Shown here one piece after another: positions 10,403 to 33,777 of a stretch of DNA of 64,000 bases (positions are counted from its first letter, which is position 1; each line of letters opens with the position of its first letter). A program made the translations under genes and the position numbers. The stretch is from Blasia pusilla (taxonomy: Eukaryota): positions 9,176,001 through 9,240,000 of the forward strand of contig CM114271.1 of assembly GCA_050084515.1 (NCBI GenBank), in the 5' to 3' direction. The notes beneath the pieces were generated by a model. That model was given only the letters and a program-made list of their open reading frames with translations. It had not been told where the DNA came from and ran no database searches.

Positions 10403-12550
10403 GCAGGTACCTCGTCCAATGTAAGAATGCAGGTACGTGGGGAAAATTACCGGCAGCCTTGAAATTGTGGGCTTCACCGCCGGATGCAGAGACATTCTCC
10501 ATGTACGACATGGAGATGGGGCAGCACATGTCCGATTGGGAGGTGGAGAATTGTCCCATTTGGCTCGACTTCAACGACCTTGAAAACATCACCGATAAGG
10601 ATTTACGAGTGCTTCATGATGCAGTGGCCTCAGGACAAGACGACATCCCCAATTTCGTGCAGCCTGAAGACTTCTTCGGAGGAGATGCAGAAGAGCAGGC
10701 CCACAAGATAGCTGAGTTGGCTTCCAAGGTCCGCACAGCCAAAGACAAATCCACAACGGGTCTCAAAGGCAAGGCGAGGGGAGGAAAAAATTCCGAGGCC
10801 GAGTCTTCCCAAAGAGAGGCTGAAGATTCAAGGCCAGAGGCGGAATCGTTCGGGCGAGCGGGGAGAGAGGGTCGGACCAGGTCCTCGGCAAAAAAACCCC
10901 CACCAGAGTCTGAGGTCATAGAGACCCCGACAAGCCGTCCGCAGACTCGGGAGAAGCGGAAGCGAGAGGTGCCAGGGTTGTCCCAAGGAGAATACAGTCC
11001 ATCATCCTTGGGAAGACACAAACAAAAAACGACCGGACAAGCGTCCTCCTTGATTCACTCCTTTCTTTGGATGAGCCGAAGAGCTTCGGGATTCTCAGCG
11101 TCGACACCAGCCATCGAAAAATTGACAACGCTGGGACAGAAGCTCCAACGAAACGGGCACGCTTCCTGGACGGTGAATGGAGTGGTCGAAGAGGTTGCGG
11201 TGGATCTCTTGATCGCCGATCAGCCCTCGGGGTTGTGACTTTGGGGTGAGAATCCGTCGGACGAGATACTTGAGTGGAATGTGCCGCTCACTTATGACCA
11301 GATTGCACTTTTGTTCTCCTTTGCATACGCCTATCTGAGTGACAGGGGCTGCTTCTTGGTGTTGACTGGAGGGAGCGAGGACGAGCTCTTCAACCTCTAG
11401 TGCGTCAAGAGGTCGCTAAAGTGGAGGATGGCACAATCGTGGATCATAAAAAACGAGTACCCACTCCGATCCGCGACGAGTCAGATTCGGGTAAGGCTCA
11501 ATTTCTGTACAATAATTTAAATTATCTTATAATGATGTGTAGAATGAGAGTCAATCTAGGTTTTTTTTGTCCGTGAGCAACCCGTCGGAAGGCGACGGGT
11601 TGCTGGCTTAGAGCAGCCCATGCTTGGCTGAGAGCAACCCGTCAGTTTCCGACGGGTTGCAAACCCGCATGATGTACAGCAACCCGACGGGTTGCGGTTG
11701 CTGAGTTTTTCGGTTGATTTTGGTTTTGGATGCAACCCGTCGATAGCGACGGGTTGCTCTCAGGCGAGCATGGGCTGCTCTAGGCCAGCAACCCGTCGCC
11801 TTCCGACGGGTTGCATCCAAAAACCAAAATCAATTGGGAAAACCCAAAAGCAACTGCAACCCGTCGGACTCCGACTGGTTGATCCAAAGTCAGTTATTGA
11901 AAATGTTCTCAAGGCGACTTCTTTAGTTTCTGACATTGTTTCCAACGTGCTGATTTACAGATGGACCACTCCTACGTCTACTGCTTCGTTCGGCCCGAGC
12001 ACAATTTCCAAGTGTTCAAGATCCAGGATCCTGTGGATCCATGCTCAGATGGGTATAGCTTAGATAGTTTGTACAATTCCCCCTCGGGAATTTACATGCA
12101 AGACAGTACCCCAGTTCTGGGAGGAAGGGAAAAGTCGCCACCCTGATGCAAACGCTCATCGAGCTCTGCTCAAGGCCGGGTGACTTGGTGTTCGACTTAG
12201 TGGGACTTTCAGGGGCAAGTATCAAAGGCGCATGGCAGAGTGGCAGGAACATTCTCGCCTCGAGGGAAGGCAGGAACTGTTTGACCTTTGCAAGGAGGCA
12301 AAGGCAGAATACGAAAGGCTCGTTGGGGCGTACAACTCTCCACCGAAGCCGAGAGCTCCGGTTCCAGACCGACCATTGGTAGTGACTCCATCGTCACTTC
12401 CAACGATTCCAAAAATCGGGAGGGCAAGGCCGAAAGTAATTTTGCAAGAGGTCTCGGACGATGACGAGTCAGTTCAAAGAACTCAACGACCTAGCTTGAC
12501 TGCAGCGTTTGGAGTAGGGAGTTTTTTGATGATGAGGCAAAAGATTTCAT
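10403..12550 (+). pseudogene. 3' part of the MULE cargo gene (amino-MTase-like domain), copy A
   Basis: Exon to 11489, GT-AG intron 11490-11960 full of palindromes, last exon from 11961 (MDHSYVY...GGREKS / MQTLIELCSRPGDLVFDLVGLSG). Contains stops and frameshifts. Confidence 0.8.
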
Positions 12551-13439: not shown

Positions 13440-13789
13440 AGTCCCATCACTCAAGCAGTCAACCTGTCAGAATCCGACAGGTTGCCTGGAAATGGTTAAA
13501 AAGTTGCAGTGGGCAAAAAGCAAAAAGTCGGAATCATACGGGTTGCAGAATTGTACCAAAGGAATGTCCTGGGATTCAAATGGCTCCTATGGCCGATTGT
13601 AGACGGGGATCGAAAATGTTGGCGAATTCGAGAGCCTTGCCCCCGCCCTAGGTACCCCATAACGGTCCCATATAACCTGATTTGAGTCCCACCGCCTTCC
13701 TCGGCAGTATACCTTGTACGCTCTGCAATGTGACACCCATCCAGTATCAATATGTGCTCCGTCCTTGGTAATACCAATATGGCAATCGA

Positions 13790-16559
13790 ACCGGAGCTCT
13801 CGGCTTTGGTGGAGAGTTGTACGCCCCAACGAGCCTTTCGTATTCAACCTTTGCCTCCTGGCAAAAGTCAAACAGTTCCTGCCTTCCCTGGAGGCAGAGA
13901 ATGTTCTTGCCACTCTGCCAGGCGCCTTTGATACTCGCCCCTGAAAGTCCCACTAAGTCGAACACCAAGTCACCCGGCCTTGAGCAGAGCTCGATGAGCG
14001 TTTGCATAAGGGCTGGCGACTTTTCCCTTCCTCCCAAAAGTGGGGTACTGTCTTGCATGTAAATTCCCGGGGGGGAATTGTACAAACTATCTAAGCTGTA
14101 TCCATCTGAGCATGGATCCACAGGATCATGGATCTTGAACACCTGGAAATTGTGCGCGAGCCGAACGAAGTAGTACACGTAAAGAAGCACGCTGGAAACA
14201 ATGTGAGCAACTTGGCATAATGTGCAACACGTCACCAAAGAAGTCGGCTTGACCCTAGAGAACTTTTTCAAATACTAACTTTGGATCAACCTATCGGAGT
14301 CCGGCGGGTTGTTTTTTCCCTGACCAACCCGTCGGAAGGCGACGGGTTGGTCAGGGACAAAACAACCCGTCGGGCTCTCCGTTGTTTTTGTCCATGAGCA
14401 ACCCATCGGAAGACGACGGGTTGCTGGCCTAGAGTAGCCCATGCTCGGCTGAGAGCAACCCGTCGCTTTCTGACGGGTTGCAGCTTTCCGGAAACACAGG
14501 GAAAAACCAAAAGCAACTGCAACCCGTCGGGTTCCGACGGGTTGTAGGTACACCACGGTTTTCCCTGTGTTTCTGGGAAAGATGCAACCCATCGGAAACC
14601 GACGGGTTGCTCTCAGCCGAGCATGGGCTGGTCTAAGCGAGCAACCCGTCGTCTTCCGACGGGTCGCTCACGGACAAAAACAACGGAGATATACTATCTG
14701 AAATTAACACTCATTGAGGCTTACCCAAATTTGAAAATATATTTGATATTATACTACAGGAATTGAGCCTTACCCGAATCTTACTCGTCGCGGATCGGAG
14801 TGGGTACTCGTTTTTTATGATCCATGATTGCACCGTCCTCCACTTTAGCGACCTCTTGACGCACTGGAGGTTGAAGAGCTCGTCCTTGCTCCCTCCAGTC
14901 AATACCAAGAAGCAGCCCCTGTCACTCAGATAGGCGTCTGCAAAGGAGAACAATAGTGCGATTTTGTCATAAGAGAGCGGCACATTCCACTCAGGTACCC
15001 CGTCCGAAGGATTCTCGCCCCATAGTCGCAACCCCGAGGGCAGATCAACGATCAAGAGATCCACCGCAACCTCTTCGACCACTCCATTTACCGTCCAGGC
15101 AGCGTGCACGTTTCGTTGGAGCTTCCATCCCAGCGTTGTCAATTTATCAATGGCTGGTGTCGACGCTTGAGAACTGAAGCTTTTCAGCTCATCCAGTAAA
15201 GGAGTGAACTGAAGGAGGACGCTTGTCCGGGTCATTGTTTGTCTGTGTCTTCCCAAGGATGATGGACAGTATTCTCCTTGTGACAACCCTTGCACCTCTC
15301 GCTTCCGCTTCTCCTGAGTCTGCGGACGGCTTGTCGGGGTCTCTATGACCTCAGACTCTGGTGGGGTTTTCTTCGCCAAGGACCTGGTCCGACCCTCTCT
15401 CCCCGCTCGGCCGGACGATTCCGCCTCTGGCCTTGAATCTTCAGCCTCTCTTTGGGAAGACTCGGCCTCGGAATTTTTCCCTCCCCTCGCCTTGCCTTTG
15501 AGACCCGCTGTGGATTTTTCTTTGGCTGTGCGGACCTTGGAAGCCAACTCAGCTGTCTCGTGGGCTTGCTCTTCCGCATCTCCTCCGAAGAAGTCTTTAG
15601 GCTGCACAAAATTGGGGATGTTGTCTTGTCTTGAGGCCACTACATCATGAAGCACTCGTAAATCCTTATCGATGATGTCTTCAGGGTCGTTGAAGTCAAG
15701 CCAAATGGGGCAATTCTCCACCTCCCAATTGGACATGTGCTGCCCCATCTCCATGTCGTACATGGAGAATGTCTCTCCATCAGGCGGCAAAGCCCACAAT
15801 TTCAAGGCAGCCGGTAATTTTCCCCAAGTACCTGCATTCTTACATTGGACGAGGTACCTGAAGACCATCCATTTGGGCGACTTTTACTCGAATCAATCGG
15901 TCGAAATCGCTCCTGTAGATCTCGCTTCTTCTTTGCTTGATCCCGTTTGTTCCCCTCGATTTCTTCATCAAGCTCTGCCTAAGGGAGGACGCAAACCTTG
16001 AACATTGTCTTGAATCTTGGGTTTTTTATTGGCTTGTCTCGGATGTCGTCAAGCCAAACCTCGAAATCTACAGAACTTTCCAGGTTTGCTTCATCTGGAA
16101 TAGGCTCTAATCTTTTGAGCTCCGCTTGCAGACCGTCCAGCACGGACTTCTTGATAACCCGCAATGCATCCCCGAACGACCATTCGCGTAGCCAGTGGGA
16201 GATCATTGGATCGGACACACCCCGAGGATGGTGTGCCGCCCTCTTTAGGGCCTCTGTGCCCTCGAGACTGATTTTCATCAGTTAAATCCTCCTAGACTCG
16301 CTTATGCTGGACAACGCAAACCGATGCACGCAATCCAGGGACACTTTCTCCCCAATCCGACCTTGCGGATCTTCATCCCTTTTCCGCTGGCGCTTGATAA
16401 TTGCCTTCAGCTCCTTGTAAAACTCCGGACCAAGTTCGGGGTTGAGAATGCTGATATATCGCTGCATCTTGCTCGCCCTGTATTTCGTGGCTGCAGATAC
16501 TGCAGCTTAGATGAATTTTGCGCGCTCAGACCCAAATACTTTCTCCCTCCGCTCTAGCT
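13790..16559 (-). pseudogene. 3' part of the MULE cargo gene (amino-MTase-like domain), copy B, inverted relative to copy A
   Basis: ORF 14711-15868 (VDLLIVDLPSG...AYLSDRGCFLV) and ORF 13747-14271 (EKSPALMQTLIELCSRPGDLVFDLVGLSGASIKGAWQSGKNILCL), separated by a palindrome-rich intron. Confidence 0.8.
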
Positions 16560-16962
16560 GAGGAGCGGTAAGAGAAGAGGAAGAGAGGAAGAGAGGAGAG
16601 AGGAGAGAGGAAACTAGGGTCAACCGAAATTGATACTCTTTTTTGAAGAGAGTTTCCGTCGGGTTGAAGAGAGGAAAATTTTGGTTTGAAATTTTTTGCA
16701 CTTTTTTGTTCATATATTAAGCAATCCCACAGTTTTTTTTTCCTCTTCCATATTTTGGCAACCCCTCTGAGTCCGACGAGTTGCAAATTGCACAAATTTT
16801 AGAAAACTGAAAAATCAGTGGAATCATAAGTGTGGAACCAATCACTTTTTCCATCCAAGGTCTTGAAATAATCTGTCATTTTCCCGGGGCTGAATAGAGT
16901 TCAAGCTCGAAGTGAAGGTTGAGAAAAAAATAAAAGTACAATCTAAAACCTCCTTTGCATCC

Positions 16963-19785
16963 TTAAAGTGGTTTGTTTAAAATACTTCGCACTTCTTTGA
17001 GGGACAGACTTGGTTGGTGGATTCCTACTCCTACCTCCGACTCTCTTAAAACTACCAGCAACACATAGTACATGTGCTTACAAGGGAAATACCTTTTGCC
17101 ACTTGTCTCTCTTTGGACAAAGTCATCACATGAACATGTGGGAAAGCAACAGATGTGCACCACATACACCCCTGTGACACTTGAATTTCTGATGTTGTTC
17201 GACCCAATACATCCTTCCTATTCCATTGCCACTCAAGACATCTTTTGTGGCGATGATCTCCATTTTTGCCTCCCAGTGCTTTGCATTCGCTTTGCTCTCT
17301 CCACCGTTGGCCTGCACATTTTGTTTCTCTTCACCCCATTTCTAGACTCAAACAGAAATAATGGATTGAGATCATCCACCTTCTCCGGGTACATGTTGAC
17401 ATCAATCTTAGGTTGAATAAAAAATGCGAAGGTCTATGTAATGCGAACATGCTCCGAACTTCCCCCGTCTACGAGTCTGAAACCGACACTTGTAAGATTG
17501 TCCACTTCGTCTTGAGTGCAGTTCGTGCCTGCGGCGATGGGCCAAATCGTGGGGGTATTCCTGGGAGCTCCAATGGCAGCCGGATAAGACTTCCGGAAAG
17601 CGCAAGATTCATTTGGGTAGAAGAAGTACTTCAATTGATCCCCGGTCCTCGTGAAACGATCAAAGGTTTTGAGTCCCCAAAACCCACGCAGAGGTCGTCC
17701 AGTCCTTGTACAGTTCTTATTTAGGAAAGTGCCGCATGCTCTCCTAATGCCATCAGATCCTGCCCTGCAGGTGGGTCCACATCCTGGGTTGCTCCGAGAT
17801 ATATGCCACCGTTTTAGGTTGCAATCCACCTCCATAACCGAATCCCATATTGTTGAACCACCCCAGTGACAGGATGTTGCAAACTTCCAGCAACGGAGGG
17901 CTTTTGAAATAAAACATTCACTGATTTTGGAGAAGTAACTCCATCACGGATTTGGGACGAGTCCGGGGTCCCCGAATACCTGGGCGGTGTAATTTCCTCA
18001 TCCAAATCATTCACCGGATTCGTTCCTCGATGCTGCCTCTTCACCTGCCTGAAGTCAAGATACTTATCTGGTCTCCACAAGTCTCGTTCGGATTGCTCTA
18101 CCACCATCTGTATGGGACCTCTTGAAACCCGCCCACGAATATCCCCACCTATGTGTACGTCTTGCTCGAGTGGAGTTCCAGCTACGCACCGGTTGAAGGC
18201 TTCGACATATAATTTTTCATCACCAGATCTCACAGCCGCCCTGACATAGAGCTCGTAGATCGACGGCCCCTTTCCTTTTGTTATGCATTTTGTGAGAAAG
18301 ATATGGGATGTTGCAGACTCTAGCATTGCTGTTGCTTGGTCTTGTTGGCATGCCTCCACAAGTGAAATTCGTTGGCATGCTTGTGACGACCTCCAAGAGG
18401 AATGAACACTTTCTACTCCACTTGTGTTGGGGCAGAGGGCATTTTCATGAACGTTCAATCCCTGCAACCACGGCAATGTTAGAAGGGAACGAAAGTAACT
18501 CAAGAGTCAAAGAAATAAGCGACCTATCGGAACCAGACGGGTTGCAGGCCCGAGGCATCCCATGAACGACTCTCCGACCCGTTTGGTCCCGACGTGTTGT
18601 AACCTTAAACCCACCTACTGCAACCCGTCGGAACCCGACGGGTTGCAAGGCCGAGGCATCCCATGAACGACTCTGTGACCCGTCGGGTCCCAATGGGTTG
18701 CACACTCGCGTTGCACCAAACATCTGGATGCAACCCATCGGTTTCCGTCGGGTTGCACACTCGGGCAACCCGTCGCATCCGACAGCTTGCTTGGTTTCTT
18801 GGGTTTGAAATCCATATAATTCCACCGCTTCTCACCGTGAGCTACAACTTTACAAATAATTCTCAGCGTGAGCTTGACAAGACAAAATAGTGAACTCACC
18901 TGCCGCATGAAGTTTCCCCATTGTCTCATACGCATCTGATCCACGAATCAACCAAGAGCACAACTCTTTGTACTTCCCTCAATCGCATGTCGCCTCCACC
19001 ACCCATGAAGTTCTTCTGGCATTCCATGGCCTGCTTCAAGGTTTTGTTGTCCTTGCAGCGTTGGAGTAGAGTGACATGCTCTGTCCTCTTATTCTCCTTT
19101 ATGCAAGATTTGGTGTACCGGGTCACAGACTGTTGCCAATGGAAAGCATCCAACCTTTCCCTCTCCTGTTGAACCTCTCCACCCCATAACACTTCCCGGA
19201 TAGCAATCCACCCAGGTTGTGCATTGTCCGCCATGAACCCATAAATTTCCGGAGGTGGCCTTTTGTTTTCCTTCACCACCTCCAATAAGAGTAACCAGCA
19301 CATCTTCAAACTGCCAACGTCTTCTGCCTTTACTTCACAGACAAATCTAGTTTTGAGTCCCTTCTCCATATGGTCATCAAGGTGAGCACCCATCGTCAAC
19401 CATCTATTCAGCACTCTGTAGCAAATATCAAAGCTTACCCAGCTGCCGTAAAGATCTTCCCCTTCCCTTATTCGATCTATAAGATTGAGGCCACTCGACG
19501 GACCTGTGGTTGACATTTTGAAGACATAGGCCCTGGATCCCTCGCCTCCTTGGCCCATGAACTGCCATCTCTGAATGAATGGAAATCTGGAGTTGGCCTT
19601 GATTCTGGCGATGGCATCCATTTCGGCCGTCTTTCCATCCAGAACTCGTATCTGACGCAACAAATTCCGGAAGCATTCAGGATCAGCGAGAAATGCGAGA
19701 TTTTCCTAGAGTTGTTTCTCCTCAACCGCCGTGATCTCGCCCTGTCCAGGGATTCCAAGAAATTGTTCACAAATTTGTGATGCCG
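16963..19785 (-). pseudogene. MULE transposase, 5'-truncated (DDE core and SWIM finger)
   Basis: VSFDICY, FMADNA, DAFHW, PNTSGVESVH and C-terminal CSCDDF...PCKHM. One palindrome-rich intron at ~18461-18899. Confidence 0.85.
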
Positions 19786-22700
19786 GATGAGGAATCTGCA
19801 TTTCTTCATCTGGGATGGAAATCACAGGTTCATGGCGGAGACCAAGTTTGCGGAGGAGCGGCCCAACTCATTGGAGGCACATTTTTGCGTGAAGGCAGTG
19901 GTCCTTCACCCATTCCCTCATCACATGGCGACGGTGGAGATGGCAATGCATGCCATGAACATGTGAGTATCTTTAACACTTACGCAACTCGTCGGACTCC
20001 GACGAGTTGCTCGATTGATGAATGGGTTAGGTTTTTTTTTGCCGAAAGAAACTCGTCGGACTGCGACGGGTTGCTCGACTCGATGCTTTTTCGGATATTT
20101 TTTTAAGAATGCAACTCGGTCGGACTCCGACGAGTTGTTTGATTGACCACAAATTTAATTAGTTTTTGGCCCAAAGCAAACCGTCGAAGTCCGACGGGTT
20201 GCTCGACTCGCCGCCTTGTCAGGATGTTTTTTGAAGAATGCAACTCGTCGAACTCCGACGAGTTATTCGATTGACCGCAGGTTTAGTATGTTTTTTGCCC
20301 AACGCAACCCGTCGGAGTCCGACGGGTTGCTTGCCTCGAAACTGTTTTTGGCCGAAATCAACTCGTCGGAGTCCGACGGGTTGCATTCGGAAGTTGGTTC
20401 CCCAAATTTTGCATCAAATTGCAAGTTTCCATTCAATTGCGCAACCTGTCGGACTCCGACAGGTTGCTATGTTTACATAAGTATGTTCAGTTGCACAACC
20501 CATCGGAGTCCGACGGGTTGAAACCAGGCATTATCAAATCTGAATGCAATCCGTCGGACTCCGACAGGTTGCATCATTTAGCTCGTTCTTAGAATCCGAC
20601 CTTGAGTTGTGACGACCCTTCGGACTCCGATGGGTTGCAGGAACCCATGTAATTTCCTGACAGGTTGAGTTTGGATGTGCAAGATTGTATCGGAGGGGAA
20701 TGTCATCCACCACTGGATCCAGGACTGCGATCGGGTGAGGAAGGTGCTTACGACGCACCCGGGAGAGTACAGGGGGTTCTTGGGCGATACCCTTGTTAAT
20801 CAGATGCTTGCAAAGGGTGTTTAGATTAAAAAGAAAACTTGGGCAAATAAGTTTATTTCCCAAGATGCAGCCGTAACCATCCTTTGCTGGTCGAAGATAC
20901 AGGCCACGAAGAAGAGCGCTGCACTGGAGCTGCAGCGGAGGGAGAAGGTATCTGCGTCTGAGCGCGTGAAATTCATCCAAGCAGCAATATCTGTAGCAAC
21001 GAAATACACGGCGAGCAAGATGCAGCGATACATCAGCATTCTCAACCCCGAACTTGGTCCGAAGTTCTACAAGGAGCTGAAGGCGATTATCAAGCGCCAG
21101 CGGAAGAGGGATGAAGATCCGCATGGTCGGATTGGGGAGAAAGTGTCCCTGGATGGCGTGCATTGGTTTGCGTTGTCCGGCATAAGCGAGTTTAGGAGGA
21201 TCCGACTGATGAAAATCAGTCTCGAGGGCACAGAGGCCCAGAAGAGGGCGGCACACCATCCTCCGGGTGTGTCCGATCCAGTGATCTCCCACTGGCTACG
21301 CGAATGGTCGTTCTGGGACGCGTTGCGGTTATCGTGAAGTCCGTCTTTGGACGGATGCAAAGCGAGCTCGAAGATTAGAGCCCAACCCGGATGAAGCAAA
21401 CCTTGAAAGCTCTGGAGATTTCGAGGTTTGGCTCGACGACATCCGAGACAAGCCAACCAAAAACCCAGGATTCAAGACAATGTTCAAGGTTTGCGTCCTC
21501 CCTCAGGCAGAGCTTGACGAAGAAGTAGAGGGGAACAAACGGGATCAAGCAAAGAAGAAGCGAGATCTGCAGGAGCAGACGGCCGATTCTGTTCGACAAA
21601 AAGCTGCCCAACGGATGGTCTTCAGGTACCTCGTCCAGTGTAAGAATGCAGGTACGTGGGGAAAATTACCGGCAGCCTTGAAATTGTGGGCTTCATCGCT
21701 GGATGCAGAGACATTCTCCATGTATGACATGGAGATGGGGCAGCACATGTCCGATTGGGAGGTGGAGAATTGTCCCATTTGGCTCGACTTCAACGACCCT
21801 GAAAACATCACCGATAAGGATTTACGAGTGCTTCATGATGCAGTGGCCTCAGGACAAGACGACATCCCCAATTTCGTGCAGCCTGAAGACTTCTTCGGAG
21901 CAGATGCAGAAGAGCAAGCCCACGAGATAGCTGAGTTGGCTTCCAAGGTCCGCACAACCAAAGACAAATCCACAACGGGTCTCAAAGGCAAGGCGAGGGG
22001 AGGAAAAAATTCCGAGGCCGAGTCTTCCCAAAGAGAGGTCAAGATTCAAGGCCGAGGCGGAATCGTTCGAGCGGCGAAAGGGAGAGAGGGTCGGACCAGG
22101 TCCTCGGCAAAAAAAACCCCACCAGAGTCTGAGGTCATAGAGACCCCGACAAGCCGTCCGCAGACTCGGGAGAAGCGGAAGCGAGAGGTGCCAGGGTTGT
22201 CCCAAGGAGAATACAGTCCATTATCCTTGGGAAGACACAGACAAACAACGACGCGGACAAGCGTCCTCCTTCAGTTCACTCCTTTACTAGATGAGCTGAA
22301 GAGCTACAATTCTCAAGCGTCGACACCAACCATCGATAAATTGACAACGCTGGGATGGAAGCTCCAACGAAACGGGCACGCTGCCTGGACGGTGAATGGA
22401 GTGGTCGAAGAGGTTGCGGTGGATCTCTTTATCGCTGATCTGCCCTCGGGGTTGCGACTTTGGGGCGAGAATCCGTCGGACGAGGTACCTGAGTGGAATG
22501 TGCCGCTCTCTTATAACCAAATTGCGCTATTGTTCTCCTTTGCAGACGCCTATCTGAATGACAGGGGCTGCTTCTTGGTGTTGACTGGAGGGAGCAAGGA
22601 CGAGCTCTTCAACCTCCAGTGCGTGAAGAGGTCGCTAAAGTGGAGGACGGCGCAATCGTGGATCATAAAAAATGAGTACCCACTCCGATCCGCGACGAGT

Positions 22701-23752
22701 AAGATTCGGGTAAGGCTCAATTCCTGTACTATAATCTCAATTATATTTTAATGATGTATATAATGAGTGTTTATCTCCGTTGAGTGAGTATAATGAGTGT
22801 CAATCTCCGTTTTTTTTGTCCGTGAGCAACCCGTCGGAAGGCGACGGGTTGCAGGCTTAGAGCAGCCCATGCTCGGCTGAGAGCAGCCCATCGGTTTCCG
22901 ACGGGTTGCATCTTTCCCACATACACAGGGAAAACAATGGTGTACCTGCAACCCGTCGAGACCCGACGGGTTGCACTTGCTTTTGGTTTTTCCCTGTGTT
23001 TCGAAAAGTCGCAACCCGCCTCGATAGCGACGGTTGCTCTCAGCGAGCATGGGTCGCCTAAAAACAACCCGTCGCCTTCCGACGGGTTGCTCACGGACAA
23101 TAACAACGGAGCCCGACGGGTTGGTCCGGGACAAAACAACCCGTCGGACTCCGACAGGTTGATCCAAAGTTAGTAATTGAAAATTTTCTTAAGCCGACTT
23201 CTTTAGTTGCTGACATTGTTTCCAACGTGCTTATTTACAGATGGACCACTCCTACGTCTACTTCTTCGTTCGGCCTGAGCACAATTTCGAGGTGTTCAAG
23301 ATCCAGGATCCTGTGGATCCATGCTCATATGGGTACAGCTTAGATAGTTTGTACAATCCCCCCCGGGAATTTACATGCAAGACAGTACCCCACTTCTGGG
23401 AGGAAGGGAAAAGTTGCCAGCCTTGATGCAAACGCTCATCGAGCTCTGATCAAGGCCGGGTGACTTGGTGTTCGACTTAGTGGGACTTTCAGGGGCAAGT
23501 ATCAAAGGCGCATGGCAGAGTGGCAGGAACATTCTTTGCCTCGAGGGAAGGCATGAACTCTTTGACCTTTGCAAGGAGGCAAAGGCAGAATACGAAAGGC
23601 TCGTTGGGGCGTACAACCATCCACCAAAGCCGAGAGCTCCGGTTCCAGACCCACCCTTGATAGTGACTCCATCGTCACTTCCAACGATTCCAAAAATCGG
23701 GAGGGCAAGGCCGAAAGTAATTTTGCAAGAGCTCTCGGACGATGACAAGTGA
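19785..23752 (+). pseudogene. ParB-like + amino-MTase-like cargo gene, copy C (longest contiguous stretch, 5'-truncated)
   Basis: Exon fragment with WDGNHRF to 19962; intron 19963-~20682; long exon to 22709; intron 22710-23240; last exon 23241-23752. Splice phases give continuous frames apart from scattered lesions. Confidence 0.8.
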
Positions 23753-24955
23753 GTTCAAAGAACTCAATGACCCAGCTTGATTGCAACGTTTGGAGTAGGG
23801 AGTTTTTTGATGATGAGGCAAAAGATTTCATAGAATAGATCAAATGTATAGCTACAAGCTTTTTTCGGATGATATAAAGCAGAAGATTTTTTCGAACGAT
23901 GGTGGTGCTTGTAAAAGTTTGCTGAAAATTTTTTGTCTTTTCGAATGTGATCGTCTATGTACTCCGCGGACTTCTATTTTGCAACCCGTCGGATTTCTCT
24001 TGCTTGCAACTTTTCACTTTTTGACCACTGCAACCCGTCCGATTTCTCCTGCTTGCAACTTTTCACTTTTTGACCACTGCACCTTTTTACCACTTCCAGG
24101 CAACCTGTCAGATTCCGACAGGTTGCCTGATCGGACTCTTTCCCTGTTGGTCCAACTTAAGAGGCAGTCTGGCGAGCTTCTTCCCTTGGCACCCTCCCCT
24201 CAACTCGTAAAGGCAGGCGTAGGCTTCTTTTCTTCTCTCAGACGTGTTGGATTCCTACTACCTGTGCAATTGCCATAATGGTATTACCGGGGACGGAGCA
24301 CATATTGATACTGGATGGGTGTCACATTGAAGAGCGTATAAGGTATACTGCCGAGGAAGGCGGTGGGACTCAAATCAGGTTACATGGGACCGTTATGGTG
24401 TACCTAGGGGGGGCCAAGGTTCTCGTATTCGCCAACATTTTCGATCCCCGTCTACAATCGGCCAGAGGAGCCACTTGTATCCCAGGACATTCCTTTGGTA
24501 CTGTCACCGAGGAAAGTTAGGAGTAAATTTGGAGGTGCGGTAAGACGAGAGGAAGAGAGGAAGAGAGGAGAGAGGAGAGAGGAGAGAGGAAGAGAGGAGA
24601 GAGGAGAGAGGAAACTACCTTCAACCGAAATAGATAATTTTTTTTGAAGAGAGTTTCCGTTGGGTTGAAGAGAGGAAACTTTTTGTGTGAATATTTTTGC
24701 ACTGTTTTGTTCATTTATTAAACAATCCCACAGCTTTTTTTTCCTCTTCCATATTTTGGCAACCCCTGTGAGTCCGACGAGTTGCAAATTGCACAAAATT
24801 TTTGCAAATTGCACAAAAAAAAGTGTGGAACCAATCACTTTTTCCATCCAAGGTATGGAAAAAATCTATCATTTGCCCCGGGCTGAATAGAGTTCAAGCT
24901 CAAAGTGAAGGTTGAGGAAAAATAAAAGTACAATCTAAAACCTCATTTTGCATCC

Positions 24956-27900
24956 TCAAAGTGGTTTGTTTAAAATACTTCGCACTTTTTTTAGGGACAG
25001 AATTGGTTGGTGGATTCCTACTCCTACCTCCGACTCTCTTAAAACTACCAGCAACACATAGTACATGTGCTTACAAGGGAAATACCTTTTGCCACTTGTC
25101 TCTCTTTGGACAAAGTCATCACATGAACATGTGGGAAAGCAACAAATGTGCACCACATACACCCCTGTGACACTTGAATTTACAGTGTTGTTCCTGACCC
25201 AATACATCCTTCCTATTCCATTGCCACTCAAGACATCTTTTGTGGCGATGATCTCCATTTTTGCTTCCCGAGCTGATGCAATTCGCTTTGCTCTCTCCAC
25301 CGTTGGCCTGCACATTCTGTTTCTCTTCACCCCATTTCTAGACTCAAACAGAAATAGTGGATTGAGATCATCCACCTTCTCCGGGTATATGTTGACATCA
25401 ATCTTGGGTTGAATACGAAATGCGAAGGTCTCTGTAATTCGAACATGCTCCGAACTTCCCCCGTCTACGAGTCTGAAACCGACACTTGTAAGATTTTCCA
25501 CTTCGTCTTGAGTGTAGTTCGTGCCTGCGGCGATGGGCCAAATCGTGGGGATATTCCTGGGAGCTCTAATGGCAGCCGGATAAGACTTCCGGAAAGCGCA
25601 AGATTCATTTGGGCAGAAGAAGTACTTCAATTGATCCCCGGTCCTCGTGAAACGATCAAAGGTTTTGAGTCCCCAAAACCCAGGCAGAGGTCGCCCGTCC
25701 TTATGTACAGTTCTTATTTAGGAAAGTGCCGCATGCTCTCCTAATGCCATCAGATCCTGCCCTGCAGGTGGGTCCACGTCCTGGGTTGCTCCGAGATATA
25801 TGCCACTGTTTTAGGTTGCAATCCACCTCCATTACCGGAATCCCATATTGTTGAACCACCCCAGTGACAGGATGTTGCGAACTTCCAGCAACGGAGGGCT
25901 TTTGAAATAAAACATTCACTGATATTGGAGAAGTTACTCCATCACGGATTTGGAAGCAATCCGAGGTCCGCGAATACTTGGGCGGCATAATTTCTTCATC
26001 CAAATCAATCACTGGATTCATTCCTTGATGATGCCTCTTCACTTGCCTGAAGTCAAGATACTTATCTGGTCTCCACGAGTCTCGCTCGGACTGCTCTACC
26101 ACCATCTGTATGGGACGTCTTGAAATCCGCCCACGAATATCCCCACGAATGTGTACGTCTTGCTCGAGTGGAGTTCCAGCTACGCACCGGTTGAAGGCTT
26201 CGACATACAATTTTTCATCACCAGATCTCACGGCCATACGACATAGAGCTCGTAGATCGACGGCCCTTTTCCTTTTGTTATGCCTTTTGTGAGAAAGATA
26301 TGGGATGCTGCAGGCTGTAACATTGCTCTTGCCTGGTCTTGTTGGCATGCCTCCATTAGTGAAATTCGTTGGCATGCTTGTGACGACCTCCAAGAGGAAT
26401 GAACACTTTCTGCTACACTTGTGTTGGGGCAGAGGGCATTTTCATGAACGTTCAATCCCTGCAACGACGACAATGTTAGAAGGGAACAAAAATAACCCAG
26501 GAGTCAAAGAAATAAGCGACCTGTCGGAACCAGATGGGTTGCACGCCCGAGGCATCCCATGAACGACTCTGCGACCCGTCGGGTCCCGACGTGTTGTAAC
26601 CTTAAACCCACCTACTGCAACCCGTCGGAACCCGACGGGTTGCAAGGCCGAGGCATCCCATGAACGACTCTGTGACCCATCGGGTCCCGACGGGTTGCAC
26701 ACTTGGGTTGCACCAAACATCTGGATGCAACCCGTCGGTTTCCGTCGGGTTGCACCCTTGGGCAACCCGTCGGTTTCCCTCGGGTTGCACACTCGGGCAA
26801 CCCGTCGGTTTCCGCCGCGTTGCACACTCGGGAAACCCGTCGCATCCGGCAGCTTGCTTGGTTTCTTGGGTTTGAAATCCATATAGTTCCCACGCTTCTC
26901 ACCCTGAGCTACAACTTTACAAACAATTCTCAGCGTGAGCTTGACAAGACAAAATAGTGAACTCACTTGCCACATGAAGTTTCCCCATTGTCTCATACGT
27001 ACAGTCCACCACCTCAACCAAGAGCACAACTCTTTGTACTTCCCCTCAATCGCATGCTTCCTCCACCACCCATGAAGTTCTTCCTGGCATTCCATGGCTT
27101 TGCTTCAAGGTTTCTTTGTCCTTGCAGCGTTGGAGTAGAGTGACATGCTCTGTCCTCTTATTCTCCTTGATGCAAGATTTGGTGTACCGGGTCACGGACT
27201 GTTGCCAATGGAAAGCATCCAACCTTTCCCTCTTCTGTTGAACCTCTCCACCCCATAACACTTCCCGGATAGCAATCCACCCAGGTTGTGCATTGTCCGC
27301 CATGAACCCATAAATTTCCGGAGGTGGCCTTTTGTTTTCCTTCACCACCTCCAATAAGAGTAACCAAAGACATCTTCAAAGCGCCAACGTCTTCTGCCTT
27401 TACTTCACAGACAAATATAGTTTTGAGTCCCTTCTCCACATGGTCATCAAGGTGAGCACCCATCGTCAACCATCTATTCAGCACTCTGTAGCAAATATCA
27501 AAGCTTACCCAGCTGCCGTAAAGATCTTCCCCTTCCCTCATTCGATCTATAAGATTGAGGCCACTCGACGGACCTGTGGTTGACATTTTGAAGACATAGG
27601 CCCTGGATCCCTCGCCTCCTTGGCCCATGAACTGCCATCTCTGAATGAATGGAAACCTGGAGTTGGCCTTGATTCTGGCGATGGCATCCATTGCGGCCGT
27701 CTTTCCATCCAGAACTCGTATCTGACGCATCAAATTCCTGAAGCATTCAGGATCAGCGAGAAATGCGAGATTTTCCCATAGTTGTTTCTCCTCAACCGCC
27801 GTGATCTCGCCCTGTCCAGGGATTCCAAGCAATTGTTCACAAATTTGTGATGCCGTTGTGAGCTTGATCACCCCGGGCTTTGAACCGGAGAGTTTTTCAG

Positions 27901-28979
27901 AGACCTCGGCTACTTTCTTCGCCACATCCTCCTTGATGTGTCTTTGAATTGCATCGGTCACAGGATGAGTGTGGGAGCCAACATGAACTGCCAGCCTTGT
28001 ATACTCTGACGTGGAGCCCAAGTCATGGTCAATGAAAAATATGTATGCAAGACACGCTCCAACGCAGAAGGGCGATGCTTGACAATGAGGACATCGATGG
28101 CCTCCCGGCGGTATTGTGGCACCCACCTCGTATGGAGTTTCTGCATTCTTGGGGGGGAATTGCAACGTATTGACTCGCCCGTTGCGCTCTAGATACGGGC
28201 ATGCTGGACTTCTACACTCCAAGGCTCCTACGCATTGGCGGCGGGAGACAATCCAAGGACCATCTGGGATGGAAGCACTGGTCCGTTGAAGCCTGCACCA
28301 TCGATGACAATCAGACTTTCTGTCCATACCCTTCAGGCGTCCTCCATCCTTCTTTTGAGCAGGAGCAGCAAGTGGAGGCAACTCAAAAATGCAATTACCA
28401 TCGTACTTGGGCGGCAGCTCGTCGACAAGAATATGCTTGAACATTTTCAAGGGCAGAGACGAAAGCAAACTATTGCCTGATACTCGCAAGAGGAACGAGT
28501 AGGCGGACAGAGGGCCTGATTGGTGTCCGACAGATCCGCTGAGGTTGATAACATCCGGAATCTCTTCAGGAAGAACAACATTGTTACGAGTGTGCGAAGT
28601 TGGAGTCGAAGCCGGATCTGCAGAGCTTGGAGTTGCAAACGTAGAGCTCAGAGCACTAGGAAATTCTAGACCGTCTACTTGGGAAACAGATTTAATTCGT
28701 GGGCGGGCCGTAAACTCAGTATTGACCATTTGCATGTAGGAGATTCCATACTTTACGGTCTGAGGTCACTGGATGGACCGTCTCACCTATTATGTCTTCC
28801 GTACCTTCCACTCTAACATCTTTGGATACAAAGATGGTTCCAATTTGAAGAAGAAATCGAACAGACAGAAAATTTTCATCCACTGCTACGAAAGACTCAC
28901 GAGCTTGGGGTCGAATGATTTCTGGTTGAGGAAGGGCCGCCAAATGACTGCCACAAGTGAGCTTAACATAATTATCCAT
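24956..28979 (-). pseudogene. Full-length but frameshifted transposase: GCM/WRKY-like Zn domain + MULE DDE + SWIM
   Basis: Exon 1 ~28979-26967 (QCVGALECRSPACPY, CPHC, VHVGSHTHP, VSFDICY, FMADNA, DAFHW); GT-AG intron 26966-26459; exon 2 26458-24956 (PNTSVAESVH, CSCDDF...PCKHM). Confidence 0.88.
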
Positions 28980-29549
28980 TCCAAGAAGATTCCTACGGGA
29001 GGAGACTGAGAATGAGAATGAGAATATTTAATTTATAGTGAATAGGAAAAGATACTCTCGATGATTTTTCTTGACAAGATGAATTCGGTGGGGAGATTAT
29101 GCGACACAATGGATCCATTCAGAACACATTCAATTGTGTTGCAATATGTTACCGGATTTGGGAAGCAGAGGGTTGCGCATCACTTGGAACCCGTTGGAGT
29201 CCTGGTAACTCAGAAATTACCCGAAGCTTACCAAAGCCTGCAACCCGTCGGCATCGGACGGGTTGCACGCTTCTGCTAAACATTGTCGAAGCGAGCAACC
29301 CGTGGCTCTCTGGCGACTTGCTGGGATACCGCTCCTTCTTGCTCGAAGATGCGAGGCGTGCAAACCGTCTGTTCGGCGAGGCGTGCAACTGTCGCCGTCA
29401 ACGGGTTGCGCAAGGGCATCGCTTGTGGTGCGATCGGCCGGACTCGGCGACTTGCACGGGAAGCCATCGTTTCTAACCCTTGATAAGGGAAGCGCGTGCA
29501 ACAGCGATCTTGACGGATTGCCCAAAATATGTCCGTTCCGTCCCAAACA

Positions 29550-29852
29550 CGGCGGAGGCGCGCAACATGTCGGTCTCTGACGGCTTGCGCGGGTACCTCG
29601 CGTTGTTTTCCGAAGATGACGGAGGCGCTCAACCCGTCGGTCTCCGACGGGTTGCTCGCGCACGTGGCGACGTTCGGAGGATGGCGGAGGCACGCAACAT
29701 GTCGGTCTCCGACGGGTTGCGCGGGTACCTCGCGTTCTTTTCCGAAGACGACGGAGGCGCTCAACCCGTCGGGCTCCGACGGGTTGCTCGCGCACGTGGC
29801 GACGTACCCAGGATGATGGAGCCGCGCAACCTGTCAGACTCCGACGGGTTGC
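29550..29852. repeat. 132-bp tandem units, each with two palindromes, in the divergent intergenic region
   Basis: CGCAAC anchors at 29561, 29693 and 29825. The same period occurs at 44631, 44763 and 44895. Confidence 0.85.
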
Positions 29853-29912
29853 GATTTTTCACGTCCGGACTTCCGTAACATTCGGCACGTCACCGTCGAA
29901 AGGACGACGGGA

Positions 29913-29970
29913 CCCAACGGTCAACCCAACGGCTAGAAAGGTATAAATAGGGCAGAAGTCGCTCATTTCC
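29913..29970 (+). promoter_or_regulatory. Putative cargo-gene core promoter: two MSA-like elements, TATA box and Inr-like CTCATTT
   Basis: CCCAACGGTCA 29913-29923, CCCAACGGCTA 29925-29935, TATAAATA 29942-29949. Conserved in the second copy. Confidence 0.6.
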
Positions 29971-30189
29971 GGTTTCTCATTTTGCGATCCTCATTCCTCA
30001 CTCCTCACTCTCCCGTGCAGCAGCTGATCAGATACGAAGGGCATCTCACGCGGCGACACATCGCGAGTCGATAGGACGGAACGAGAGCGAGACGGTTCGA
30101 CCGAGCGATATCGGGACGATTCGAGCTAACCACCAAGGCGAGACGAGCTCCCATCTCAACATCAGCAAGGCAACTGATCAAGGGATTCG

Positions 30190-33100
30190 TCGTGGACATA
30201 GGCGGAGGCATTTCCGGCAAAAATGACGAGGAAAAAAACACAAGCCAACAAGTCCGAGAGCTTCAATCCCAAGTCCATTAGGACTCCTGCGTCAGCTTCT
30301 CCTGGGCCTCGTTCGGCGAAACTGTTTTTGGCCAAAATCAACCTGTCGGACTCCGACGGGTTGATTAGGGAAAAATAGCTTCGAGGCAAGCAACCCGTCG
30401 GACTCCGACGGGTTGCTTTGGGGCAATAACCTTCTAAACCTGCAGTCACTCGAGCAACTTGTCGGAGTCCGACGAGTTGCATTCTTAAAAAAACAACCTC
30501 ACAAGGCGGCCTATTGAGCAACCCGTCGGACTCCGACGGTTTGCTTTGGGCGAACAACTTGTTAAATCTATGTTCAATCATACAAGTCGTCAGAGTCCGA
30601 CGAGTTGCAATCTTAAAAAAACATCCGAAAAAGCGTGCGATCAAAGAACCCGCCGAGTCCGACGAGTTGCTTACCTGGCATTAGCAAATTTGAATGCAAC
30701 CTGTCGGACTCCGACGGGTTGCATCATTTAGCTTGTTGCTAGAATCCGACCCTGAGCTGTGACGACCCGTCGGAGTCTGACGGGTTGCAAGAACCCATGT
30801 AATTTCCTGACGGGTTGAGTTTGGATGTGTAGGATTGTATCGGAGGGGAATGTTACCCACCATTGGATCCAGGACTGCGATCGGGTGAGGAAGGTGCTTA
30901 CGACGCACCGAGAGAATCTGAGGGGTTCTTGGCGATGCCCTTGTCAATCAGATGCTTGCAAAGGGTGCTCGAATTAAGAAGAAAACTTGGGCAAACAAGT
31001 TTATTTCTCAAGATGCAGCCGCAACCATCATTTGCTGGTCAAAGATACAGGCCGCAAAGAAAAGCGCTGCACTGGATCTGGAGCGGAGGGAGAAGGTATC
31101 TGCGTCTGAGCGCGCCAAATTCATCAAGCTCAGATCTCTGCAACGAAATACACGGCGAGCAAGATGCAGCGATACATCTTCTCAACCCCAAACTTGGTCC
31201 GGAGTTCAACAAGGAGCTCAAGGCGATTATCAAGCGTCAACGGAAGAGGGATGAAGATCCGCATGGTCGGATTGGGGAGAAAGTGTCGCTGGATCGCGTG
31301 CATCGTTTTGCGTTATCCGGGATTAGCGAGTTCAGGAGGATACGATTGATGAAAATGCATCTCGAGGGCTCGTGAGGCCGGAAGAGGGGCACACCATCCT
31401 CCGGGTGTGTCCGATCCGATGATCTCGCATTAGCTCGCGAATGGTCATTCGGGGACGCGTTGCGGGTAATCGGGAAGTCACCGACGGTCCGATGCAAGCG
31501 GAGCTCGGAAGATTAGAGCCCATTCGCCGGAAGCAAACTTTGAAAGTTCTGGAGATTACGAGGTTTGGCTCGACGACATCCGGGACAAGCCAACCAAGAA
31601 CCCTGGATTCAAGACCATGTTCAAGGTTTGCATCCTCCCTCAGGCAAAGCTTGACGAAGAAGTAGAGGGTAACAAACGGGATCAAGCGAAGAAGAAGCGA
31701 GATCTACAGGAGCAGACGGCCGATAATGTTCGACTAAAAGCTGCCCAACGGATGGTATTCAGGTACCTTGTCCAGTGTAAGAATGCAGTGTACGTGGGGA
31801 AAATTGCCGATGAGCCTTGAAATTGTGGGCCGCCGCCGGATGCGAGAGACATTCTCCATGTACGACGTGGAGATGGGTCGACATGTCGGATTGGGAGGTG
31901 GAGAATTGCCCCATTTGGCTCGACTTCAACGACCCTGAAGACATCGTGGATAAGGACTTAGGAGTGCTTCATGATGCAGTGGCCTCAGGACAAGACGACA
32001 TCCCCAATTTCGTCGGCTGAACCAAGACTTCTTCGGAGGAGATGCGTAAGAGCAGCCCACAAGATAGCCGAGTTGGCTTCCAAGGTCCGCACATCCAAAG
32101 ACAAATCCACAGCGGGTCTCAAAGGCAAGGCGAGGGGAGGGAAAATTCAGAGGCCGAGTCTTCCCAAAGATAGGTGAAGATTCAAGGCCGAGGCGGAATC
32201 GTCGGCGGCGGGAGAGAGGGTCGGACCAGGTCCTTGGCAAAAACCCCACTAGAGTCGAGGTCATAGAGACCCGACAAGCCGTCCATGAGACTCGGGAGAA
32301 GCGGAAGCGAGAGGTGCCAGGGTTGTCCCAAGGAGAATACAGTCCATCATCCTTGGGAAGACACAGACAAACAACGACGCGGACAAGCGTCCTCCTTCAG
32401 TTCACTCCTTTACTAGATGAGCTTAAGAGCTACAATTCTCAAGCGTCGACACCAGCCATCGATAAATTGACAACGCTGGGATCTCCTTATCGCTGATCTG
32501 CCCTCGGGGTTGCGACTTTGGGGCGAGAATCCGTCGGACGAGGTACCTGAGTGGAATGTGCCGCTCTCTTATGACCAAATTGCGCTATTGTTCTCCTTTG
32601 CAGACGCCTATGTGAGTGACAGGGGCTGCTTCTTGGTGTTGACTGGAGGGAGCGAGGACGAGCTCTTCAACCTCTAGTGCGTCAAGAGGTCGCTAAAGTG
32701 GAGGACGGCGCAATCGTGGATCATAAAAAGCGAGTACCCACTCCGATCCGCGACGAGTCAGATTCGGGAAAGGCTCAATTCCTGTACTATAATTTCAATT
32801 ATATTTTAATGATGTGTATAATGAGTGTTCATCTCCGTTGAGTGAGTATAATGAGTGTCAATCTCTGTTTTTTTTGTCCGTGAGCAACCTGTCAGAAGGC
32901 GACGGGTTGCTGGCTTAGAGCAGCCCATGCTCGGCTGAGAGCAACCCGTCAGTTTCCGACAGGTTGCATCTTTCCCACATACACAGGGAAAACCTCGGTG
33001 TTCCTGCAACCCGTCGGGTTCTGACAAGTTGCTCTTAGGCGAGCATGGGCTGCTCTAGGCCAAAGCAACCCGTCGCCTTCCAACGGGTTGCTCGGGGACA

Positions 33101-33777
33101 AAAACAACGGAGCCCGACGGGTTGTTTTAGTCTCGACCAACCCGTCGGAAGGCGACGGGTTGGTCGGACAAAACAACCCGTTGGACTCGACAGTTGATCC
33201 AAAGTCGATGAATTGAAAATGTTCTCGACTTCTTTAGTTCTTGACATTGTTTCCAACGTCTTTGATTCTGAGATGGACCACTCCTACATTTCTTTGCCCG
33301 TTCGGCCCGAGCACAATTTCAGTGTTCAAGATCCAGGATCCTGTGGATCCATGCTCAAATGGGTACAAAGCTTAGATAGTTTGTACAATTCCCCCCCGAG
33401 AATTTACATGCAAGACAAATACCCCACTTACGGGAGGAAGGAAAAGTCGCGATCTGATGCAAACGCTCATCCGGCTCTGCTCAAGGCCGGGTGACTTGGT
33501 GTTCGACTTAGTGGGACTTTCGGGGCAAGTATCAAAGGCGCTGGCAGAGTGGCAGAACATTCTGCCTCGAGGAAGGCAGGAACTGTTTGACCTTTGCAAG
33601 GAGGCAAAGGCAGAATACGAAAGGCTTGTTGGGGCGTACAAATCTCCACCAAAGCCGAGAGCTCCGGTTCCAGACCCACCCTTGGTAGTGACTCCATGGT
33701 CACTTCCAACGATTCCAAAAATTGGGAGGGCAAGGCCGAAAGTAATTTTGCAAGAGCTCTCGGACGATGACGAGTGA
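30190..33777 (+). pseudogene. ParB/amino-MTase-like cargo gene, copy D; ParB exon deleted, indel-rich
   Basis: The 5' part matches 45276 onward until ~30320, then jumps into intron palindromes. Intact acceptor GTGTAG|G at 30832/30833. Last exon 33273-33777. Confidence 0.75.

Follow-up and report, generated by a model that had tools for sequence, protein, structure and literature searches.

We analyzed a 64,000-nucleotide window of the bryophyte Blasia pusilla (GenBank assembly GCA_050084515.1, contig CM114271.1, positions 9,176,001 to 9,240,000 of the forward strand; coordinates below count from the first letter of this window). Our subject is a gene-like segment at 19781-23752 on the + strand, here called copy C, which had been interpreted from its sequence alone as an intron-containing fusion of a ParB/Srx-like domain and a beta-class amino-methylase with deviant catalytic motifs. 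Copy C is a dead, 5'-truncated deletion derivative of a gene family. With moderate confidence, we take it to be the internally deleted remnant of an accessory gene carried by a multi-copy DNA transposon, whose protein would probably have been a non-catalytic DNA binder. The sequence-only reading was right about the peptides, the splice junctions and the methylase homology, but missed the transposon accessory role, the partner gene and the truncation of copy C.

Structure, decay and transcription of the gene

Copy C (19781-23752, + strand) consists of three coding blocks, parted by two palindrome-rich stretches. Together with the neighboring fragment of a second gene, its parts are as follows.

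18926-19705, - strand: fragment of the partner gene (transposase-like), abutting the truncated exon 1
19781-19962, + strand: exon 1 remnant, the last 60 codons of the ParB/Srx-like exon, 93% identical to copy E at 46023-46502
19963-20682, + strand: intron 1, GT..AA in copy C and GT..AG in copy D, carrying a 64/128-bp tandem palindrome array
20683-22709, + strand: exon 2, a helical/low-complexity middle region followed by the N-terminal half of the methylase-like domain, with a TAG at 20822 and deletions at 21326 and 21369
22710-23240, + strand: intron 2, GT..AG, phase 0, with palindromes
23241-23752, + strand: exon 3, with the motif VIII-like YVYFFVR, the region of motifs X-I-II-III and the C-terminal tail; stop codon at 23750-23752

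Every peptide quoted in the earlier interpretation was located on the + strand of this segment. WDGNHR is encoded at 19811-19828 and VDLFIADLPSG at 22419-22451; YLNDRGCFLV, WIIKN and YVYFFVR are encoded as well, and 23450-23545 reads EKLPALMQTLIEL, then a stop, then SRPGDLVFDLVGLSGASIKGAWQSGRNILCLE. VDLLIADLPSG, YLSDRGCFLV and EKSPALMQTLIELCSRPGD are composites of several copies, as had been stated, and copy C differs from them at those residues.

Copy C carries six lesions, each missing from at least one other copy. Those private to it are the TAG at 20822, the 1-nt deletions at 21326 and 21369, a 1-nt deletion at 23356 and a TGA at 23447, the last two of which disrupt exon 3. The acceptor of intron 1 (20681-20682) has also changed from AG to AA, again in copy C only.

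Self-comparison of the window yielded six copies of the gene, at 84-89% identity and in both orientations. It also revealed a second conserved gene, the partner, upstream on the other strand, with copies at 24560-30320 and 16560-19785. The remaining five copies and the longest open reading frame (ORF) of the partner are listed here.

10404-12519, + strand: copy A, 3' part of exon 2, intron 2 and exon 3; 89% identical to 21623-23800
13788-16559, - strand: copy B, with the longest open pieces (390 amino acids of exon 2 and 175 amino acids over exon 3); 88% identical to 20928-23645
30655-33825, + strand: copy D, heavily frameshifted, canonical AG acceptor of intron 1 retained
41734-43761, - strand: longest partner-gene ORF (675 amino acids), divergent from copy E
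45138-46925, + strand: copy E, 5' part only, comprising a charged ORF (45138-46022), the full exon 1 (46023-46502) and the start of intron 1
49331-50426, - strand: copy F, intron 2 and exon 3; 84% identical to 22712-23800

The truncation of copy C is visible by comparison with these loci. The stretch 18519-19785 resembles 26617-27855 and 41630-42863 at approximately 90% identity, and at 19701-19785 a piece of the partner gene is fused straight onto the final 60 codons of exon 1. Relative to copy E, in which the same points are spaced from 42863 to 46318, copy C lacks 3,455 bp, comprising the 5' ends of both genes and the intergenic region. The partner fragment therefore abuts the exon 1 remnant because about 3.5 kb has been deleted. 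Exon 1 of copy E (46023-46502) has 159 open codons, and a 294-codon ORF lies upstream in the same frame; a putative GT..AG intron of 90-93 nt (45945-46034/46037) would span the single stop codon.

For transcription, three raw RNA sequencing (RNA-seq) runs bearing the same species label (X3, X4 and X5) were mapped at 86% likeness, giving 199, 277 and 249 reads over 18800-24100. First mates lay mainly on the - strand across 19685-23932 and on the + strand across 18800-19684, which in a usual stranded library implies + strand RNA over the gene and - strand RNA over the partner. A joint from 19961 to 20683, with an intervening C standing for T19962, was carried by two reads in X3, three in X4 and none in X5. 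These five reads support the proposed junction 19962/20683, where copy D keeps the canonical AG.

The second junction, 22709/23241, is supported by GT..AG ends, by an RNA depth of zero in bins 22871-23047 and 23048-23224 in all three runs, and by colinearity with uninterrupted proteins of the moss Ceratodon purpureus, which read ...HQKL THNFNIKVYARK where this family has ...SKIR|MDHSYVYFFVR. The gene thus contains introns, as had been claimed. Exon 2 is open from its junction to motif IV once the private lesions of copy C are set aside. The RNA joint, together with the colinearity of exons 2 and 3 with single Ceratodon proteins, places exon 1 and the methylase-like exons in one polypeptide, in which the ParB identity of exon 1 is the weak element. 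On the question of whether the two parts belong to separate genes, then, the transcripts join exon 1 to exon 2, but no joint is listed for intron 2.

Several features of these data count against our interpretation. Only 0, 4 and 3 reads per run were at least 99% alike to copy C, so the transcripts mostly derive from other copies. Bins in intron 1 were as deep in RNA as exon bins; therefore many reads there are unspliced or come from other repeat-carrying loci. No spliced read for intron 2 is listed in the three runs, and none of the six copies in the window is intact.

The commonest differences between reads and copy C over 18800-24100 were C>T (59-60 places) and G>A (37-44 places) in all three runs, an excess that fits, as expected, deamination of methylated cytosines in old transposon copies. 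We also observed reads (1 in X3, 10 in X4) linking 20011 and 20229, both in intron 1, on opposite strands. Expressed copies elsewhere would therefore carry an inverted array, as at 46834-47023 in copy E.

Homology of the methylase-like domain

Two word-based protein searches with exon 2 of copy B gave no match among longer or similar-length proteins. With exon 3 of copy B as the query, a full HMMER scan identified three proteins at an expect value (E) <=0.001 among 1.84 billion. The top match, P0001, was discarded as a junk repeat protein. P0002 is an unnamed protein of 147 amino acids on a 13-kb ENA contig. P0003 and its paralogues P0004-P0006 (758-810 amino acids) are 'hypothetical proteins' of Ceratodon purpureus with no precomputed Pfam domain. 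The Ceratodon loci are KAG0605740 and its paralogues. Common to their proteins and the Blasia family are the methylase-like domain in full and parts of the middle region. By BLASTP, exon 2 (21285-22709) matched residues 480-569 of P0006 (E 3e-9) and the copy B equivalent of exon 3 matched residues 630-691 (E 1e-13), so that both exons match one Ceratodon protein in order. The only detectable relatives of the gene family lie in a moss (the named ones in Ceratodon).

Judged by profile comparison, the C-terminal domain is homologous to beta-class N6-adenine/N4-cytosine (N6A/N4C) DNA methylases (PF01555) and is split by intron 2; the sensitive tests all point to this class, and none points elsewhere. 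The Pfam family N6_N4_Mtase (PF01555) was the best match for three members (E 0.0084, 0.015 and 1.8e-4), each time over profile positions 165-217 of 221. The HMMER check suggested for the earlier interpretation thus singled out the expected family, but no member reached the 26.7-bit cut-off (exon 3, 16.5; P0003, 15.7; P0002, 22.0). Among solved structures, exon 3 (copy B, 13750-14181, - strand) matched M.RsrI best (E 0.024), and a family profile matched DpnA (E 0.001), CcrM (E 0.005; residues 26-253 of the chain aligned to profile positions 46-236), a cytosine-N4 methylase and M.RsrI. Designed 'Cake' repeat proteins, which led the profile search of the PDB, were discarded because their scores were sums of many stretches of about 1 bit.

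Phage sequences gave a similar picture. PHROGs DNA methyltransferase families were matched by exon 3 (E 5.8e-5) and by P0003 (E 4.9e-5), and tblastn of exon 3 on phages returned 284 and 268 records. Named methylases made up 13 of the 15 best rows and 50 of 60 rows spread down the ranking; the remaining 10 of the 60 carried no annotation or a gene number only, and none had another function. Ten phage proteins picked through these matches were all PF01555 members, and hhalign aligned the family with them at 96.5% probability (E 8e-10) over 61 columns, from motif X to motif III. PF01555 was also present in 25 of 30 neighbors of P0003 residues 400-670 in an Atlas feature search.

Because the ten phage proteins had been chosen through exon 3, we built a second reference set. 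A scan of prokaryotic genomes with the phage alignment gave 80 loci, with 21 ORFs that have at least 190 residues before DPP[YFW]; 20 of these were scanned with Pfam, the other (L070) being omitted since it runs off its locus. PF01555 was found in all 20 and ParB_N at E<=0.001 in 16, with 13 above the cut-off. Against these 16 fusions, which were not selected by likeness to our family, hhalign gave 82% (E 1e-5); the aligned stretch starts at ADAPEG/TDPPY, ends with motif III and has 196 colinear columns. In this alignment the motif IV-VIII block precedes motifs X-I-III, which is the beta permutation that the earlier interpretation had proposed. A prokaryotic or phage origin, which it had also proposed, is plausible on the ground that 16 of the 20 scanned ORFs combine ParB_N and N6_N4_Mtase in the same order; the argument is one of architecture, not of a tree.

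The sub-threshold Pfam scores weigh against this assignment, as does the behavior of the N-terminal half of the domain. Alone, that half matched no methylase in the PDB and no phage by tblastn, and its hhalign probability was 41.7% with the phage set (expected motif-for-motif) and 1.7% with the fusions. An AlphaFold2 model of P0003, made from a 9-row alignment, had a mean predicted local distance difference test score (pLDDT) of 32.8, too low to use; its strands and helices come in an order that fits a Rossmann-type methylase, which we do not count as support.

Exon 1 and the altered catalytic motifs

We think it likely that exon 1 encodes a ParB/Srx-like domain. ParB/Srx domains have a strand followed by a phosphate-binding helix start of the G-x-x-R or DGxHR type, and HFFIWDGNHRF is present in both exon 1 copies. 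When compared with the 16 whole fusions, hhalign placed residues 16-51 (RIPLCRLRT...IAKLKQSA) on the first ParB_N strand-helix at 5.4% probability; with the ParB part alone the probability was 21% and the score 25.5. None of 300 shuffles (mean 11.6, sd 2.1, maximum 21.6) and none of 83 natural ORF segments (maximum 19.6) reached that score.

The alternative, that exon 1 is an unrelated N-terminal module on a methylase-derived transposon protein, would have to treat this outlying score, and its position on the ParB_N strand-helix, as coincidence. It would also have to set aside three further observations: (i) sub-threshold DUF1015 matches in Pfam for two copies (copy E, E 0.013, 14.9 bits against a cut-off of 25.8, residues 70-128 including WDGNHR; copy C, E 0.09), where we take DUF1015 to belong to the ParB clan and found no paper in the literature that places it there; (ii) the 30 Atlas neighbors of exon 1, which are leads only, with 17 that have ParB_N or DUF6551 (5 in the ParB_N-containing set, 12 with DUF6551) and 8 with DUF3723; and (iii) the order of exon 1 and methylase, which equals that of the prokaryotic fusions. 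DUF3723 is a Starship cargo family, which the Starship paper does not call ParB-like.

We consider this alternative unlikely. The evidence on its side, which also counts against a ParB assignment, is as follows. Pfam ParB_N (PF02195) had no match at E<=1 for exon 1, and NCBIfam, PHROGs and the PDB gave no ParB match; with exon 1, tblastn yielded only noise from phages and plasmids. The hhalign probabilities are only 5-21%, and in the best local alignment GHGR is matched by EHGT and not by DGNHR; FFIWDGNHRF aligns with iI-GH-R only in a second, weak alternative. The AlphaFold2 model of exon 1 failed (mean pLDDT 39.9, too low to use). The Ceratodon gene models begin past the region equivalent to exon 1, so the fusion is seen in this genome only. 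What survives of the original ParB/Srx call is thus a score above all shuffled and natural controls, without the profile match.

Two tblastn matches of exon 1 were dismissed as noise: the C-terminus of a Lactococcus phage 'DNA methyltransferase', whose record has no PF01555 match, and a plasmid match at E 2 in a polyketide synthase gene. PF02195 was absent from the 10 phage genomes behind the phage PF01555 reference loci. We note that locus L001 (KX456208.1 17716-18768), a Lactococcus phage gene annotated 'DNA methyltransferase' but lacking a PF01555 match, lies among capsid genes and that sister records say head maturation protease; it is probably misannotated.

In the C-terminal domain, two catalytic motifs of copy C depart from the beta-class consensus.

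22419-22451, + strand: motif IV position, VDLFIADLPSG where DPPY/F is expected
23471-23500, + strand: motif I position, FDLVGLSGAS where DPFxGSGTT is expected

The pairing of motif IV comes from hhalign, which aligns IDMIFADAPEG with VDCIITDPPFG of the phage set and with kAdLVITDPPYn of the fusions. Motif IV can be read in copies A, B and C only, since copy D is frameshifted and partly deleted and copy F is without the region. All three have D[L/Q]PSG (DLPSG in B and C, DQPSG in A) and four Ceratodon proteins have DAPEG, whereas all 16 prokaryotic fusions have DPPY. FDLVGLSG occurs in 5 of 5 copies; for the motif I loop DPFGGSGST, the reading is DLVGLSGAS here, DWSA[N/S]TGAS in Ceratodon and DLSASTSAS in P0002. 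In addition, SREKxP replaces HPTxKP in the family. Hence, as aligned, the family throughout has other residues in place of the motif IV aromatic one and of the first glycine in the motif I loop. Because the changes are common to the whole family they are old, and the claim that they predate the decay of the copies extends to the Ceratodon homologues. P0002 is the member closest to true methylases by Pfam score (22.0 bits), yet it has lost both loop glycines.

The ratio of nonsynonymous to synonymous substitution (dN/dS), as a crude Nei-Gojobori count between copies, was 0.29-0.71 in all six pairs for the exon 2 ORF. For exon 3 it was below 1 in 8 of 10 pairs, the remaining two being 1.02 and 1.05. 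This check, suggested with the earlier interpretation, indicates that constraint acted on the sequence while the gene family spread.

Replacement of the motif IV aromatic residue and of the first motif I glycine across the family makes a non-catalytic mechanism most likely. The same transposon gene could instead encode an active methylase with a non-canonical motif IV, depositing N6-methyladenine (6mA) or N4-methylcytosine (4mC) on the element, for example on its palindromes, against silencing. We regard this as rather unlikely. An active enzyme would account for the residues that are retained, namely the motif IV Asp and second Pro, the Asp before the loop, the second Gly, and the downstream Arg and Glu. 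It would equally account for the conservation of the deviant motifs here and in Ceratodon and for dN/dS below 1, which place the domain under constraint. Self-modification is what the authors of work on Ectocarpus propose for algal accessory proteins, in the part of that paper concerned (PMC12477816), and beta-class 4mC methylases are described as active in the liverwort Marchantia (10.1101/2021.02.12.428880). Such an enzyme would nonetheless have to work with S or E for the motif IV aromatic residue in all readable members, with L, N or S for the first glycine of GxG (and without the second in P0002), and with SREKxP in place of HPTxKP. Inactive methylase domains carried by transposons are known, DIRS1 being an example according to the section on it in PMC4738411. 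We note, as a point against the non-catalytic binder, that its loss of catalysis is argued from motifs only.

Probable transposon context and comparison with known systems

The gene stands head-to-head with the same partner gene at three places, and the stranded RNA agrees with this arrangement. The partner gene was read by eye only, as having a WRKY/FAR1-like Cys/His region and a Mutator-like element (MULE)-type D..D..E pattern. A downstream partner-gene ORF in another copy (24956-25717, - strand) matched a SWIM zinc finger below threshold (E 0.017) with a CxC..CxH motif. Given these features of the partner, the transposon is probably Mutator-like. Weighing against a transposon of this class, Pfam found no family at E<=1 in the 675-amino-acid partner ORF, neither PF10551 nor FAR1, and a look for element ends around 24450-24950 and 16450-16900 turned up neither terminal inverted repeats nor target-site duplications, only a simple GAGAGGA repeat. 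A PDB search with the same ORF gave noise only. A host gene family, domesticated or duplicated, would sit well with the missing ends and duplications and with a partner that Pfam does not recognize as a transposase, but is very improbable in view of six decayed copies in 64 kb, in both orientations and interleaved with retrotransposon ORFs, the link to one partner gene kept at three places, the existence of deletion derivatives, and RNA reads that come mostly from further copies at 86-95% identity.

The element copies also share a palindrome, with a unit of about 26 bp of the form GCAACCCGTCGG-loop-CCGACGGGTTGC. Its 17-mer core, CCGTCGGANTCCGACGG, had 51 matches in the window at up to 2 mismatches, against 0.03 expected, and all 51 fall inside element copies. 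The matches form tandem palindromes with a period of 64/128 bp in intron 1 and occur also in intron 2 and inside the partner gene.

44264-44916, and likewise 29245-29847, no strand: palindromes (core matches) in the intergenic region between the divergent genes
19984-20633, 22826-23157, 46520-47023 and others, no strand: palindromes (core matches) elsewhere

The center of the intron 1 array is GGA[C/G]TCC, which contains GANTC, a CcrM-type target; the loop varies elsewhere, and the occurrence of GANTC may be chance.

We propose the following scheme for the intact gene. It would have had at least three exons, probably four, encoding approximately 1,150 residues, and would have been transcribed divergently from the transposase-like gene. 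The predicted protein comprises a charged N-terminus, a ParB/Srx-like domain, a long helical/low-complexity middle region and a beta-class methylase-like C-terminus, and may descend from a prokaryotic ParB-methylase fusion. It would bind the DNA of its own element through the ParB-like head and the methylase-derived module, with the palindrome arrays of the introns and the intergenic region as candidate sites. Binding might aid transposition or protect the element against silencing.

Algal transposons have been described with the same architecture (PMC12477816). This is therefore not a unique enzyme, and the locus reads as a land-plant variant of an accessory protein kind recently noted there. 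As reported in 2025, ParB-like plus methylase accessory proteins are encoded on the strand opposite the transposase in transposons of brown, green and red algae. The Ectocarpus element Sola1-1_Ec32 (a 21.5-kb family) encodes such a protein, of 1,104 amino acids, opposite its transposase (PMC12477816). By description, it resembles our family in size (1,104 against about 1,150 amino acids), in combining a ParB-like domain with an N4C/N6A-type methylase and in lying on the opposite strand. It differs in that the host is a brown alga and the superfamily Sola1, whereas here we have a bryophyte genome, moss relatives and a Mutator-looking partner. The altered catalytic motifs found here are not mentioned in the Ectocarpus passage (PMC12477816).

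In red-algal Plavaka elements, PAG2 combines a PF01555 methylase with a SET domain and PAG3 a ParB-like domain with a 2-oxoglutarate oxygenase; tandem inverted-repeat arrays adjoin PAG3 and are proposed as binding sites, and homologues of the accessory genes occur in Chondrus Mutator elements, all as given in the relevant parts of 10.1101/2025.02.11.637652. Shared with our family, as far as that account goes, are transposon-borne PF01555 and ParB-like domains, inverted-repeat arrays, and copies that are mostly degenerate and weakly expressed. There, the two domains are in separate proteins with other partners and in another superfamily; here they are in one polypeptide.

The 16 prokaryotic ParB_N plus N6_N4_Mtase fusions have the same order, a ParB-like domain and then a beta-class methylase, with the 82% hhalign probability over the methylase domain. 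They are 409-518 amino acids long with a linker of about 100 amino acids, canonical DPPY and GSG, and no introns, whereas our family has a linker of about 500 amino acids, introns, DLPSG at motif IV and LVGLSG at motif I.

Other eukaryotic methylases linked to ParB are described by Iyer, Zhang and Aravind (PMC4738411), whose relevant sections report a Dam family of chlorophytes and chytrids with a helix-turn-helix of ParB type and a haptophyte clade 6 derived from phage ParB-Tls loci. Like our family, these would be eukaryotic adenine methylases acquired from prokaryotic ParB-linked methylases. They are M.EcoKI/TaqI-like group 2 and unpermuted clade 6 lineages, not PF01555 beta, and those sections do not report them from land plants. 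The same source describes the methylase domain of the DIRS1 retrotransposon as inactive through catalytic and substrate-binding substitutions and as thought to act by binding. DIRS1 and our family therefore have in common a methylase domain with altered catalytic residues on a mobile element, but the DIRS1 domain sits in a retrotransposon polyprotein and is PCIF1-derived, an unrelated methylase lineage.

MpDN4MT1a/b of Marchantia are active beta-class 4mC methylases, encoded by sperm-expressed host genes (10.1101/2021.02.12.428880). Set beside our family by description only, they too are prokaryotic-type beta-class amino-methylases in a bryophyte; the parts of that paper describing them mention neither a ParB domain nor a link to transposons. 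It is rare for a transposon accessory protein to bind or modify its own element's DNA, and VANDAL is the only well-studied plant case cited in the portions of the literature on such proteins concerned here. No gene like the present one was found to be reported in mosses or other land plants, in literature that did not include subscription journals and supplementary files.

If our interpretation holds, the locus extends the ParB-like plus methylase accessory kind from algae to a bryophyte genome with moss relatives and adds RNA evidence for the fusion. The conserved alteration of the catalytic motifs would argue for a binding rather than an enzymatic role, and the protein and the 26-bp palindrome array offer a concrete, testable pair. 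The locus is also a candidate link to the way in which amino-methylases of prokaryote type, whose origin is unexplained, arose in bryophytes. A bolder version, in which a land-plant transposon uses a ParB-methylase to mark its own palindrome arrays (6mA/4mC, at a non-canonical site) or to coat them in a ParB-like nucleoprotein complex, seems to us quite improbable. If true, it would constitute a self-directed anti-silencing or transposition-scaffold system, and it could be the sort of source that supplied beta-class methylases, MpDN4MT1 for example, to bryophytes.

Two minor observations concern the surroundings of the copies. A (GAGAGGA)n simple repeat is located at 24547-24600, 35459-35490 and 36515-36544, at the breaks in homology between neighboring copies, where it may indicate either the end of an element or a favored site of insertion. 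Long ORFs at 1-2256 and 57367-60770 (- strand), 92% identical to each other, have the look of Ty3/gypsy reverse transcriptase/gag-protease.

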